IMG/VR virus record: IMGVR_UViG_2667527588_000004 | Reading direction: 5' to 3' (one strand) | Origin: a virus | Taxonomy: Duplodnaviria > Heunggongvirae > Uroviricota > Caudoviricetes | Length of the DNA stretch: 32,608 nt | In this document: positions 16,454 through 27,855 of the stretch, piece after piece | Layout: each line of letters begins with the position of its first letter | Position numbering within the stretch: the stretch's first letter is position 1 | Notes under the pieces: model-generated | The model's database searches: none | The model's input: the letters and a program-made list of their open reading frames with translations, nothing else | Told to the model about the DNA's origin: nothing | Program-made: the position numbers and the translations under genes

Positions 16454-16528
<75 letters not shown>

Positions 16529-16531
16529 ATA

Positions 16532-16607
<76 letters not shown>

Positions 16608-16609
16608 AC

Positions 16610-16686
16610 TGGACCGCCACCGGGGACTCGAACCTCGCACACTCAACTTAAAGGGTTGACGCTCTTTCCTGATGAACTGGTGACGG
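16610..16686 (-). tRNA. Atypical tRNA-like gene, anticodon loop CCTTTAA (UUU, Lys-like); possibly a pseudo-tRNA
   Basis: 77-nt sequence with acceptor stem CCGTCAC/GTGGCGG (one G-U), perfect anticodon stem TCAAC/GTTGA, T-loop TTCGAGT, 3' CCA; has C at position 33 and an A-C mismatch in the T-stem. Confidence 0.45.
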
Positions 16687-16687
16687 T

Positions 16688-16763
16688 TGGTGGCCCTTGC
16701 TGGATTTGACCCAGCGACCTGTCGATTATGAGTCGCTCGCTCTCACCACTGAGCTAAAGGGCC
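16688..16763 (-). tRNA. tRNA, anticodon CAU (tRNA-Ile2 lysidine type or Met; ileZ-like)
   Basis: 76-nt sequence GGCCCTTTAGCTCAGTGGTGAGAGC...CTCATAA...GCTGGGTCAAATCCAGCAAGGGCCACCA; resembles ileX/ileZ-type tRNAs as recalled; anticodon stem and T-loop are imperfect. Confidence 0.65.
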
Positions 16764-19875: not shown

Positions 19876-19907
19876 AAAATAAAAACAAAAACCCGCCGAA
19901 GCGGGTT
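19876..19907 (-). terminator. Rho-independent terminator at the 3' end of the hok mRNA
   Basis: Minus-strand hairpin AACCCGC-TTCG-GCGGGTT followed by TTTTGTTTTTATTTT. Confidence 0.7.
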
Positions 19908-19975
19908 AAGTGCGGGTGCGTTGAGGATGCCTGCCACATCAGAGGTGGCGAGGGATTTCTCCCTCGCCGGGTCTC

Positions 19976-20131
19976 TTACTCCTCAGGTTCGTAAGCTGTG
20001 AAGACAGCGACCTCCGTCTGGCCGGTTCGGATTCGTACCTCGCAGAGGTCTTTCCTCGTTACCAGTGCCGTCACTATGACGGTTAAACAGATGACGATCA
20101 GGGCGATTAACATCGCCTTTTGCTGCTTCAT
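19976..20131 (-). CDS. hok: Hok/Gef family type I toxin (HokD/RelF-like)
   Basis: 51 aa MKQQKAMLIALIVICLTVIVTALVTRKDLCEVRIRTGQTEVAVFTAYEPEE; TM helix plus conserved RK.LCE..IR....EVA.F.AYE core; an in-frame upstream ATG at 20188 gives a 70 aa mok-like frame. Confidence 0.9.
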   Translation of the reverse strand: MKQQKAMLIALIVICLTVIVTALVTRKDLCEVRIRTGQTEVAVFTAYEPEE

Positions 20132-20342
20132 AGCCTGCTTCTCCTTGCCTTTCGGCACGTAAGAGGCTAACCTACATGTGTCTAGCATGAAATTGGCCTC
20201 AGATTAATGTTAAGCGTCTTGCAGGACGCGTAATGTTAACTGGGGCTTTTCTCTATCTGCCGTTGGTGTTCATGCCCGAGGCAGATAGCCTCAAGCACCC
20301 GCAGCCATTCTACTTAACTACCGTTACCTCGCCAATGTGAAA

Positions 20343-20432
20343 TCAGTCAGAAAGGCGATCCATAAGAACAATAGCAAGACAATAAATCGCCATTACAGCC
20401 GTAATAGCCAGCGCACATTTGAGAACCAGCAC
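20343..20432 (-). CDS. Candidate small hydrophobic peptide (29 aa), possible type I toxin-like sORF
   Basis: GTG start preceded by AGGAGG with a 5-nt spacer; translation (M)LVLKCALAITAVMAIYCLAIVLMDRLSD is one predicted TM helix with a charged C-terminus. Confidence 0.3.
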   Translation of the reverse strand: MLVLKCALAITAVMAIYCLAIVLMDRLSD

Positions 20433-20674
20433 CACAACCTCCTGTATTGGACGTACACCGGTCCTGATGAATATGAGGCTGTCTCGTCAGTGATTCAATA
20501 CAACTATTGGGTATAGTTTCTCTGATTTTTTCTGTGGAAATGGGGCTCAACCACTAGTCATTTAATACGCAAAGTCCGATACAAGCTAACCTTCTAGTCC
20601 GCTTTGAGCGAAGAGCGGACATTGCTAACAGCATCCTGTGTGAATCATTACGATCAAATCGATGACTAGATAAG

Positions 20675-20711
20675 TACAAACCGGAAAAGGGGCCTACTGA
20701 CGAAGTAGGCC
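20675..20711 (-). terminator. Terminator-like hairpin after the three-gene operon
   Basis: Minus-strand hairpin GGCCTAC-TTCGTCA-GTAGGCC followed by CCTTTTCCGGTTTG, 18 nt after the gene C stop. Confidence 0.45.
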
Positions 20712-20728
20712 TGAGTTCCTTATATATT

Positions 20729-21385
20729 TCACAAAATTCTGAGAGTTTCTAAGATGGATAAAAGTGTTGGAAGCTGACTCTCTCTCACACGGAATCTACC
20801 CGTCCTAGATAATTCCGTTTCAATTCCGTTAACGAAGAAATGTACGGAATCAAAAACGGCCGAACTATTCATGTATTTATTCTGATAAATTTCTTGGAGA
20901 TTCTTTGAGCTTACTATTTTTGTCTTTGCTAAAGTAAAAGGATCAACAGAGATATTAGATAGAGACATGGATTTTATCTTGATGTCAAAGCCCTCAGAAA
21001 GACCATTTACAATTTTTCTCAGATCAAATTCTACTGGTCTCAAGCCACTATCTTCACCAAATAGTTTTTGCACCATAGTATAAGGCACTTTCATACTTAA
21101 TGGAGGATTAGTGGCATATAGTATGATTTTTTTCCCTTGTCTGACGCCAAAGTCCACATTTAAGTAAGTTGCTATTTCAACCTCTGAACGCTCGCCATTA
21201 GCATATTCTAAGCTTTGCTTGCTAATGCTTCTCATGGTAAATCTTAGTTTAAGCACTTCAGAGTTATTAATGATTTGAAAACCATATCCTTTATCTTCAT
21301 CATAGAGGTTGTCATTTACTTTATGTAATAACTCACTTTTAGTTATATCCTTTTCTGCTTTATAAATTTTTACCTTTATCATCAT
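20729..21385 (-). CDS. Hypothetical protein C of the AT-rich three-gene operon (218 aa), unknown function
   Basis: ATGATG start at 21385 overlaps the gene B stop as ATGA; AGGAGG 4 nt upstream; AT-rich codon usage unlike the flanking phage genes; no motif recognised. Confidence 0.8.
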   Translation of the reverse strand: MMIKVKIYKAEKDITKSELLHKVNDNLYDEDKGYGFQIINNSEVLKLRFTMRSISKQSLEYANGERSEVEIATYLNVDFGVRQGKKIILYATNPPLSMKVPYTMVQKLFGEDSGLRPVEFDLRKIVNGLSEGFDIKIKSMSLSNISVDPFTLAKTKIVSSKNLQEIYQNKYMNSSAVFDSVHFFVNGIETELSRTGRFRVRESQLPTLLSILETLRIL

Positions 21386-22629
21386 CCAGCCTCCTGATTC
21401 AAAGTCTCGCAAGACATAGCTTTCGTTACTGGGTATCGCTTGGTATGCTCTTCGATAATAAAGTCATTAATCAAAAATATTTTATCTTCTAATTGTTTCA
21501 TGACTTGATCAAAGTCTGCGTCACTGAGTTTTTCTCTCTCTGCGGATGCAGAGTTGCTTTCTTTGTATAACGCTCTGAATTTTATATTTTTCCCAAGATA
21601 TTTATCATCGAAACTAAGTTCAAAAGTTATAGTATGATTCTTAACTACTGAGGAAAATGACTTCCATCGAATTAAGCTTCGATAAAACCCATCACTGCAC
21701 AGTTCCTTAATTTGAGGTGCGTTCACTAATGATAGGCCATCATACGCGGCATTGTTAATGTTAAAAGTTAGGTTTTCATCATCGTCAGATGCCATTTCCT
21801 GATTATTAATGTCATCATCATTTTCGTTATCTGTAGAAGGTGAAATCTTGTTTAATAACTCTTGTGTTTCTTCATTATTATTTCCTTCGAGATTATCTCC
21901 ATTAATATCCAGAGATGTTTTTATTCTGCTTACTCTAACCTTTTCAAGACCAGCATATTCGAGTCCTGTTTTTTTATAATTTCCATCAAAATCATAAAGA
22001 TGAACAGCAAAAATATTCCTAAGATCTGTATCGACGATACTTGATAAATCTATTTCGTTGACAACTATGTTGTTACAAACTGTTGATGAATATGTATCAA
22101 TTATTTGCTTGAGAATTTCTGAAATGCGTGGCGTATAGTTATATCTTACTGAAACATATCCTTTTTTTACTATAAAAACTATACTCCCACTGTACAATTT
22201 TTTCTGCTGAAACTTACCCCTTCTAAAATCAAACTCAGTATAATCAATAGATATATGATAGGTTTGCAAGCCTGAGTAATGATCAATTTTCTCATGCCCT
22301 AGCAACTTGGGTCTATTTTCTTTCACTTTGTTTACAACGTCATAGAGTTTCTCTATATCAAATTCTTCATATATACGTTTTACTGAGAAGACGTCTTGGC
22401 TGGGTTTGGTTGCCAGTTTATCTTGTACTTCTCTGATGTGATTATATGAAAATGGCAGGTCTGATAATTTTTCTATCAATACCTCTTTTGATAAGTTAGA
22501 TGGGAAAATTATCCCTCTATTGAAGGCGATTTTCCTTAATGTAACATCTGTGATTTTTGCACTGTTAGAGTGGAGGGCGGTATAAATGTCACTTTCGTTT
22601 GAAAACAACGTAGCTTGATATTTATTCAT
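21382..22629 (-). CDS. Hypothetical protein B of the AT-rich three-gene operon (415 aa), unknown function
   Basis: ATG at 22629 with AAGGAG spanning the gene A stop; contains an Asn/Asp/Glu-rich low-complexity linker (NNNEETQELL...DNENDDDINNQEMASDDDEN); no Walker A or other motif recognised. Confidence 0.8.
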   Translation of the reverse strand: MNKYQATLFSNESDIYTALHSNSAKITDVTLRKIAFNRGIIFPSNLSKEVLIEKLSDLPFSYNHIREVQDKLATKPSQDVFSVKRIYEEFDIEKLYDVVNKVKENRPKLLGHEKIDHYSGLQTYHISIDYTEFDFRRGKFQQKKLYSGSIVFIVKKGYVSVRYNYTPRISEILKQIIDTYSSTVCNNIVVNEIDLSSIVDTDLRNIFAVHLYDFDGNYKKTGLEYAGLEKVRVSRIKTSLDINGDNLEGNNNEETQELLNKISPSTDNENDDDINNQEMASDDDENLTFNINNAAYDGLSLVNAPQIKELCSDGFYRSLIRWKSFSSVVKNHTITFELSFDDKYLGKNIKFRALYKESNSASAEREKLSDADFDQVMKQLEDKIFLINDFIIEEHTKRYPVTKAMSCETLNQEAG

Positions 22630-22639
22630 GTCATACTCC

Positions 22640-23731
22640 TTATGAAAAGTGACATTTTCTATTCACCTGCTTGCTGGCAACCTGGTACTCAAATATAGAT
22701 AGCTTTTGATTAACAAAAGGAATGGATACTATTTTTTCCTTTAACGTTTCTATATGAGATTGAGTGAAAGAATATATTCCTATGTAATCATTAATGGCGG
22801 ATTGCAAATGAATGCTTGAGTGTGATGAGAACGGAGTTATAACAAATATTTTGTCAAATTGATTGAGTAATTGATAGTTAAATATATACTCTAAAAGAAA
22901 TATAAAGTGGTTACTGGAATCAACCTCTTCCTTCCAGAATATATTCAATATTTTATTTCTTATTCTATCGCCACCATCATTTCTAATATATTCGTGTTCA
23001 TATGAGTAAAAAATCATCCCAGATGTTATCATTTCAATTGTGGCTGGAAGAATTTTCCCTTTCGTTGCTATTTTATTATGTTTGTCAGGGTAAAAATATG
23101 TACAGTTCTCTATCTCAGGAATTTTTTGCCATAACATATTTGTTTCTTGTGTTACTTTGTCAGTAATTCCTCTTCTAGTCTCGATGTGTTCTGTAACATC
23201 TAGTAAAAATCTGATCATAGTTGGGTCAAAAACGGCAATCACAGAGTTCTCTGGAAAATCATAACTTGCTGTGGCTGCTCCATTTAATTTCTCAATTAAA
23301 TCAGAGTCATATTTATTGTCATGATTATATATAAAAAGTAGGCCGTTAACTTGATATTTCTCATTTGTGCTGTCAACAAATAGACGCCGCCACTCAGGAC
23401 TTCTTGGCGCGCAAGCTACCTGTTGTGATAAACTTCGTACAGTGTTCAATATTGATTTTGTACCGTCAAGCGTGCTGGCACAATAAGATTTTAAATCTGT
23501 TTGTATATACTGAGTTATATCTGAATAAGGATCTTTATATTTGAAGACTACATCCGTAGGATGAGTTTTTTTTGGGTTTTCAGATAAAAGTTGTTTAGCG
23601 TTTAGATGAGATCTCAAACAACAGTCCCAACTTATATCCGTTGTATTTTGGGTTTTCCAGCCTAACTCATCAAAAATTCTACTGGAAATGATACCTGCAA
23701 TCTCATCAATATTCTTAGTTTCGCCGCCCAC
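22640..23731 (-). CDS. Hypothetical protein A of the AT-rich three-gene operon (363 aa), unknown function
   Basis: GTG start at 23731 with GGAGG 4 nt upstream; first gene of a translationally coupled A-B-C operon; no recognisable catalytic motif. Confidence 0.8.
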   Translation of the reverse strand: MGGETKNIDEIAGIISSRIFDELGWKTQNTTDISWDCCLRSHLNAKQLLSENPKKTHPTDVVFKYKDPYSDITQYIQTDLKSYCASTLDGTKSILNTVRSLSQQVACAPRSPEWRRLFVDSTNEKYQVNGLLFIYNHDNKYDSDLIEKLNGAATASYDFPENSVIAVFDPTMIRFLLDVTEHIETRRGITDKVTQETNMLWQKIPEIENCTYFYPDKHNKIATKGKILPATIEMITSGMIFYSYEHEYIRNDGGDRIRNKILNIFWKEEVDSSNHFIFLLEYIFNYQLLNQFDKIFVITPFSSHSSIHLQSAINDYIGIYSFTQSHIETLKEKIVSIPFVNQKLSIFEYQVASKQVNRKCHFS

Positions 23732-24050
23732 ACTTCCTCCATAGTTCGTTGTTTTATCTAGTGAAGATCTGATTCATGGTTTTCCAAGCCCATGCGCAAA
23801 ACAATTAATCAAGTAAGAATAATCTTAATCAATTTAATCTTTTTTATTTGAATCATCAAGAGCCCCATTACTGATAGGCATCAGTTGGTGGTATCTCTGC
23901 TCAAGCTTCAGTAAAATCTGGTTTGCTACTTCCGCTCCTGGCACAAAGCGGACAACCACGCCAGATCTACCCTGTGCCATGAAAAATGAGAATGTCAATT
24001 CACTCCTGAACTAATGCTTTTTAATCTAGTAACGTCTAAAATACCTAACA

Positions 24051-27801: not shown

Positions 27802-27855
27802 TTTCTGGTGACGTTTGGCGGTATCAGTTTTACTCCGTGACTGCTCTGCCGCCGT
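27802..27855 (+). ncRNA. dicF: DicF small regulatory RNA
   Basis: TTTCTGGTGACGTTTGGCGGTATCAGTTTTACTCCGTGACTGCTCUGCCGCC followed by TTTTT matches the ~53-nt DicF RNA as I recall it; lies just upstream of dicB as in Qin. Confidence 0.75.

Follow-up and report, generated by a model that had tools for sequence, protein, structure and literature searches.

Judged by its sequence, the minus-strand segment from 19881 to 20335 of the window (the whole 32,608-nucleotide stretch of viral DNA analyzed here) holds every part of a hok/mok/sok type I toxin-antitoxin cassette. The cassette belongs to the hokW-sokW/hokD lineage and appears intact and probably functional; that it is an intact member of the hok/mok/sok type I family which would operate by the classical hok/sok mechanism seems to us very likely. 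Its carrier is an E. coli prophage of the Qin-like lambdoid kind, within which it occupies the early-right (nin-like) region. An initial annotation had proposed a complete hok/mok-type locus with fold-back elements, a proposal that agrees with the open reading frames, the Rfam leader match, the tac/fbi helix, and the terminator described below, but its boundary at 20310 was drawn too short, as the hok promoter reaches 20335. The unusualness that it implied finds no support: the full-length form without relBE is the majority and ancestral one, and the cassette is annotated in phage 933W and has been tested in the Sakai prophage Sp5. As such, the cassette is already known, and the finding is correct but ordinary.

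Over 901 bp, the hok region matches a Qin-like prophage of E. coli strain 200177 with 100% identity; there, PGAP names the gene hokD and gives it the same protein accession as K-12 HokD. The region shares 99.8% identity with phage mEp460_ev081 and 94% with 933W. The window can be recognized as a Qin-like lambdoid prophage by the combination of DicF, the tRNA genes, dicB, ydfD, rem, the DUF968 gene, rusA, and Q. The DicF small RNA matches with 72.5 bits at 27803-27854 (+). Three tRNA genes, annotated as Ile, Thr, and Gly in the identical genome, occupy 16457-16763 (-), 3' of the Q antiterminator gene and before the lysis genes.

The toxin gene, of the HokD/HokW type, spans 19976-20131 (-) and encodes the 51-aa protein MKQQKAMLIALIVICLTVIVTALVTRKDLCEVRIRTGQTEVAVFTAYEPEE. 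The Pfam family HOK_GEF (PF01848) matches it over all 42 model positions (1-42) with E=1.2e-23 and 82.9 bits, the cut-off being 22, and PHROG 251 ("MokW-like host killing") matches with E=2.8e-33, in line with the 51-aa Hok/Gef toxin recognized initially. The protein is WP_000813254.1, the same RefSeq protein as K-12 HokD, and HokD, identical to the Hok of the window, has served as a known toxic control (10.1101/2025.08.07.668861). A Shine-Dalgarno sequence, AGGAG, can be read at 20141-20145 (-), 9 nt before the hok ATG. As also noted initially, an ATG at 20188 opens a 70-codon mok-like frame (19976-20188, -) that is present in the list of open reading frames and runs in frame with hok; its own Shine-Dalgarno sequence, GAGG, lies 8 nt upstream at 20197-20200. 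The exact 70-aa mok product occurs on at least 1000 contigs, where it is named Hok/Gef family or HokC/D.

The mok and hok lengths of 213 and 156 nt reproduce the geometry of mokW/hokW of 933W, and the in-frame mok extension of 57 nt (19 codons) is that of K-12 mokC/hokC (210/153 nt). K-12 mokC and hokC share one stop codon and differ in length by 57 nt, and the same is true of mokW and hokW. Going by these pairs, an in-frame mok is standard geometry. K-12 mokB and hokB have different stop codons, and mokB is therefore not in the reading frame of hokB. In plasmid R1, mok is likewise in a different reading frame from hok. Within hok, a UACG motif at the Tyr47 codon (19990-19993, -) has the form of a TadA A-to-I editing site; in K-12 hokD mRNA, editing at the position aligned with Tyr47 is reported to convert Tyr to Cys at a level of 6% (PMC12214031). 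A second UACG in hok spans codons 32 and 33, where editing would be synonymous.

A sigma-70-like consensus scan places the promoter of the hok mRNA, TTGGCG-17 nt-TAGAAT, at 20307-20335 (-) with 9/12 matches. Its -10 hexamer is kept in all aligned prophage copies, and 7 nt separate the end of the promoter from position 1 of the Rfam leader model. We infer that transcription starts at G20300. The Rfam model RF01794 matches 20300-20126 (-) over its positions 1-157 of 157, with 115.3 bits (gathering score, 59) and E=8e-26. Although named "sok antitoxin," RF01794 matches the hok strand and stops at the hok AUG; it models the leader of the hok mRNA rather than the antisense RNA, so that a strand taken from the match alone would misplace Sok. 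The 3' end is defined by an intrinsic terminator found by a terminator scan at 19881-19907 (-), AACCCGC-TTCG-GCGGGTT plus a T-run, with a 7-bp stem (19907-19890) that is also seen as a hairpin in the minimum-energy fold. The strong terminator initially assigned to the gene thus follows the 3' UTR. With its 5' end taken from RF01794 position 1 and its 3' end from the terminator, the predicted full-length hok mRNA measures about 420 nt (19881-20300, -).

The two ends of this mRNA had been described as nearly complementary, by way of the strings GGGTGCTTGAGGCTATCTGCCTC and GGCATCCTCAACGCACCCGC, which are found at 20300-20278 and 19931-19912, respectively. In the minimum-energy fold, transcript nucleotides 1 to 12 (20300-20289) pair with 19914-19926 in a helix of 12 bp with one bulged C, every pair having a probability of 0.97-1.0. 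This helix joins a predicted tac element, 5'-GGGUGCUUGAGG (20289-20300, -), to its fold-back partner fbi, 5'-CCUCAACGCACCC (19914-19926, -), the former assigned from the pair probabilities and the latter from the predicted fold and its conservation. The 421-nt transcript (20300 to 19880) as a whole folds at -173.3 kcal/mol (z=-8.0), and 0 of 100 shuffled sequences are as stable. The complementarity is therefore confirmed as a stable, conserved 5'/3' pairing, as the initial annotation had anticipated for a folded transcript.

Eight related loci whose 3' end is intact show this pairing at the corresponding place. The distance between the two partners is unchanged in 933W, three other Qin-like prophages, PPompW, a P1-like phage, and the hok locus of an IncHI plasmid, the last with a weaker duplex. 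The tac sequence is identical in 9 of the 10 hok loci compared. K-12 hokB keeps the pairing through two compensatory double-sided changes, at tac position 7 (U-A in the window, C-G in hokB) and tac position 12 (G-C in the window, A-U in hokB); close relatives are invariant in tac and fbi, and covariation is informative from this hokB comparison only. Taken by itself, the terminal duplex is modestly unusual, and it is its conservation that makes the predicted pairing convincing. In a plasmid copy of hok (pTB-nb1, 313-960), IS421 sits just downstream of hok and the fbi partner is lost, and in K-12 hokC, IS186 sits just downstream of hok. Insertion of an IS element 3' of hok looks like a recurrent way to disable the fold-back lock.

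Shortening the transcript from its 3' end in silico releases other structures. A predicted 5' hairpin between nt 3-13 and nt 19-29 (20272-20298, -), which could hold tac in the nascent or trimmed transcript as a metastable hairpin, is the minimum-energy structure of 374-nt and 360-nt truncations (duplex, -19.7 kcal/mol). A predicted alternative partner of tac in the 3'-trimmed mRNA is ucb, 5'-AAGCCCC, at mRNA nt 52-58 (20243-20249, -). The Rfam consensus pairs model positions 1-8 with this stretch, and the same tac/ucb stem is the minimum-energy structure of a 368-nt truncation; the open fold thus appears at one of three arbitrary 3' truncation lengths (368 nt, not 374 or 360). The mok start region can form a Sok-target hairpin (20163-20200, -), which is the third hairpin of the Rfam consensus and is present in the 368-nt minimum-energy fold. 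In it, the mok Shine-Dalgarno sequence GAGG (nt 101-104) pairs with GCCUC (dcb, nt 134-138), and the mok AUG lies in the stem beside a loop with a CUAG (YUNR-type) motif. A metastable 5' hairpin and alternative conformations have been described for the hok mRNA of R1 (PMC9841398), and the closed, open, and 5'-hairpin forms modeled here, each of minimum energy in some 3'-length variant, are consistent with the R1 model. A helix between 20159-20165 and 19973-19979 was considered as ucb/dcb and rejected, as both the Rfam consensus and the R1 work (PMC9841398) put ucb at nt 52-58 and dcb at nt 134-138.

Opposite the leader, a Sok antisense RNA of 71 nt is predicted at 20180-20250 (+), mapped without indels from the sokW misc_RNA of AF125520. 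The initial expectation of a Sok-like RNA on the plus strand is thus supported by homology to sokW, but the interval 20140-20220 that had been suggested for it was off by about 40 nt. The predicted RNA has a free single-stranded 5' tail, a 9-nt overlap with the mok start, a long terminator hairpin, and a final UUUU, and it folds at -30.6 kcal/mol (z=-5.6). Its putative promoter, TTGCCT-17 nt-TAACCT (20145-20173, +), is likewise predicted by homology, the region being base-for-base identical to the sokW promoter of 933W/Sp5. The search for a plus-strand promoter that had been proposed therefore succeeded by this route only: a generic sigma-70 consensus scan did not report the promoter, because its -10 hexamer TAACCT matches 3/6 consensus positions. 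In Sp5, a sokW -10 mutant lost antitoxin activity (PMC8621323).

On the strength of this alignment, the cassette is an ortholog of mokW/hokW/sokW of the Stx phage 933W/Sp5. The 933W record (AF125520) annotates a mokW of 213 nt, a hokW of 156 nt, and a 71-nt sokW RNA whose overlap with the mokW start is 9 nt; VT2-Sakai/Sp5 (Sakai prophage 5) carries the identical stretch. Between promoter and fbi, the window and 933W differ by 30 substitutions in 424 nt, with no indels (94% identity over a 416-nt BLAST match), and no change at all falls in tac, fbi, or the Sok promoter. The proteins differ in four residues at the C terminus of Hok (FTAYEPEE in the window versus FVDYESEK in HokW); HokW is identical to the Hok of the window at 47/51 positions and has 44% identity to R1 Hok (PMC8621323). 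Both cassettes are carried by lambdoid prophages, but that of the window is located between the replication genes and rem/ydfU/Q, whereas that of 933W is near the right genome end, and the sequence beyond fbi differs between the two. Six of the substitutions relative to 933W/Sp5 are clustered within 14 nt (20182-20195), in the Sok 5' tail and the mok start. A single substitution falls in the remaining 105 nt of the leader. With a median of 2 leader copies per E. coli genome, and as many as 9, this cluster fits a divergence of antisense specificity between co-resident hok/sok copies.

Experimentally, hokW-sokW of Sp5 has been shown to be a pair of toxin and antisense antitoxin that requires RNase III and Hfq; upon treatment with mitomycin C, sokW disappears and HokW is made, promoting lysis and phage release (PMC8621323). 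K-12 hokC/mokC/sokC (gef) resembles the cassette of the window in its in-frame mok, the 9-nt overlap of Sok with the mok start, and a homologous leader (Rfam, 118 bits), but SokC measures 59 nt, without the extra hairpin extension of about 16-18 nt in the predicted Sok of the window, and IS186 directly downstream would remove the 3' region of hokC. The hok/mok/sok (parB) locus of plasmid R1, which acts in a plasmid stabilization context, follows the same logic, with tac/fbi closure, 3' processing, and a tac/ucb switch, and with Sok acting at the mok start and cleavage by RNase III (PMC9841398, PMC1635323). In a plasmid search in "distant" mode, R1-type hok loci matched over about 80 nt, too short for a full-length alignment.

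By analogy with these systems, the weak constitutive promoter at 20335-20307 would make the mRNA of about 420 nt, in which tac would first be held in the local 5' hairpin and then be locked to the 3' fbi. This lock would hide the mok ribosome-binding site, leaving the full-length RNA stable, untranslated, and unbound by Sok. Slow trimming of the 3' end would remove fbi, upon which tac would move to ucb and the mok start region would form the target hairpin. The short-lived 71-nt Sok could then pair with the target region and block translation of mok, and hence the coupled translation of hok, and RNase III would destroy the duplex between Sok and the mRNA. Once Sok synthesis stops, be it through loss of the element, a shut-off of transcription, or prophage induction as in Sp5, the stored mRNA would be translated and the 51-aa Hok would depolarize the inner membrane. 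The sequence elements, alternative folds, homology, and distribution behind this scheme come from the present analysis; for the processing, the turnover of Sok, the RNase III cleavage, and the killing, it draws on the R1 and Sp5 literature.

The initial annotation had also remarked on the absence of a RelE/RelB-like open reading frame upstream of hok. This applies to the window in its entirety, as neither RelB nor RelE is encoded anywhere in it (tblastn; best E=2.6), and in the 100%-identical genome the interval from the dic genes to hokD is annotated without relBE. Nor does the locus have the makeup of a relBEF operon: relB and relE are missing upstream, and a promoter, leader, mok, and sok of its own are present. 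K-12 hokD (relF of the relBEF operon in Qin) encodes the identical 51-aa protein WP_000813254.1, is followed by the same genes (rem, a small open reading frame, and DUF968/ydfU), and has 91% DNA identity to the window from the hok Shine-Dalgarno sequence onward, fbi included. However, K-12 has no hok promoter, tac, ucb, or mok start and neither the Sok gene nor its promoter, and relB-relE plus ydfV and flxA sit where the window has the leader side. The breakpoint at 20145/20146 cuts through the Sok -35 hexamer immediately before the hok Shine-Dalgarno sequence, so that K-12 hokD retains only the Shine-Dalgarno sequence, the open reading frame, and the 3' UTR with a partnerless fbi. Homology to K-12 resumes beyond 25681, the intervening 5.5 kb being different. 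Among 5426 complete E. coli genomes, the leader (at least 80% coverage) is found in 4279, about four fifths, and the K-12 relE-hokD junction is found in 1170, which makes the intact leader form about 3.7 times commoner. It has been reported that integration of relBE truncated an ancestral 70-codon hokD (PMC6379469), and the account in PMC12214031, citing Pedersen and Gerdes (1999), attributes the lack of canonical components in K-12 hokD to genomic rearrangement. A locus without relBE represents the ancestral and commoner state, K-12 Qin being derived by replacement of the sequence 5' of the hok Shine-Dalgarno sequence, and relBE is therefore not a missing "partner." The locus offers a clean example of how a derived reference, here the relBE-hokD of K-12, can make the ancestral form seem odd.

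The opposite polarity, in which the locus would have come from the K-12 relB-relE-hokD operon by losing relBE, its natural "partner," would draw on the contiguity of relB-relE-hokD at the syntenic position in K-12 Qin, with rem and ydfU downstream. We consider it very improbable. The leader of the window is homologous over its full length to those of hokC, hokB, the P1-like phage, and plasmid hok loci (Rfam, 89-118 bits), which makes the leader the ancestral part; K-12 homology stops abruptly within the Sok -35 hexamer, the intact form is the more frequent by the factor given above, and the published direction is that of relBE entering hokD (PMC6379469). Even less can be said for the idea that the 5'/3' complementarity and the upstream ATG arose by chance around an ordinary small open reading frame. 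The terminal duplex alone (-21.5 kcal/mol) is indeed within reach of chance, since a partner of equal stability for the G+C-rich 5' segment of 14 nt turned up in 23 of 2000 shuffled versions of the G+C-rich 3' UTR, about 1%. Yet chance would have to account as well for a covariance-model match with E=8e-26, a whole-transcript z score of -8, and a pairing that keeps its positions in every related locus whose 3' end is intact, including the compensatory changes in hokB. The Rfam match, the fold z score, and the conservation effectively refute it, and we give it next to no credence.

More weight is due to the view that the cassette, for all its intact sequence, is physiologically silent: a permanently repressed hitch-hiking relic with no measurable contribution to prophage or host. 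We hold this to be unlikely, yet to deserve some room, because native chromosomal hokA, hokB, and hokC show no post-segregational killing, a result of Pedersen and Gerdes as summarized in 10.1101/2025.08.07.668861. An intact sequence thus need not mean a measurable phenotype, and the copy number noted above (median, 2; up to 9 per E. coli genome) also suggests redundancy. Against silence, every regulatory element is kept without indels relative to the functional Sp5 locus, and decay by IS elements, as in K-12 hokC (IS186) and pTB-nb1 (IS421), is not seen in the copy of the window. Moreover, deletion of hokW-sokW from Sp5 had a phenotype in lysis and phage release (PMC8621323). We therefore favor an intact and probably functional cassette, with the qualification that a measurable phenotype of this copy is less certain than its family membership and its intactness.

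Directly upstream of hok, where the initial annotation had pointed to a small open reading frame and an AT-rich island, both are indeed present. The island (20729-23731, -) consists of three adjacent genes in the order Hp1-Hp2-Hp3, with PADLOC matches to Hp1 at 22640-23731 (-; 5e-41), Hp2 at 21382-22629 (-; 9.6e-11), and Hp3 at 20729-21385 (-; 3.8e-11); a Pfam search returned no match for the three proteins. We take the PADLOC families Hp1 to Hp3 to represent the 3HP (Rst_3HP) anti-phage system, and by these matches the island is probably a 3HP defense system. Systems of this type are reported to be borne mostly by prophages (10.1101/2021.09.02.458658, PMC11305592). The island occupies a slot between a DUF977 gene of the replication module and the hok leader (about 20440-23750 in the window), the content of which differs in each Qin-like prophage examined: PD-T7-1 in phage mEp460_ev081 (E=4e-157); relBE, ydfV, and flxA in K-12; two unknown proteins in strain N44, one of them with a weak HEPN/RES N-terminal match; an integrase fragment and an unknown protein in EC21Z-078; and IS1 in TW01221. 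PADLOC gave no match for the slot cargo genes of strains N44 and EC21Z-078. The slot looks like a cargo-exchange site, a defense or moron hotspot bordered by hok/sok, and it is flagged here as a place where prophages exchange defense genes. That hok/sok is a fixed border with a functional link to the hotspot, either stabilizing the adjacent defense cargo or providing a shared killing output, strikes us as quite doubtful.

Between the island and the hok promoter, a 29-aa hydrophobic open reading frame, MLVLKCALAITAVMAIYCLAIVLMDRLSD, occupies 20343-20432 (-), with AGGAGG 5 nt before its GTG start codon, and stops 8 nt short of the hok -35 hexamer. Three prophages that have diverged by about 7-9% keep the frame intact, with a mixture of synonymous and conservative changes. 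Databases contain the product as "hypothetical protein" only, and PGAP leaves the frame unannotated. The product aligns weakly with the C-terminal membrane segment of L0139 of 933W and may therefore represent either a remnant or a small membrane protein; an undescribed small membrane protein belonging to the hok/sok module is one possibility.
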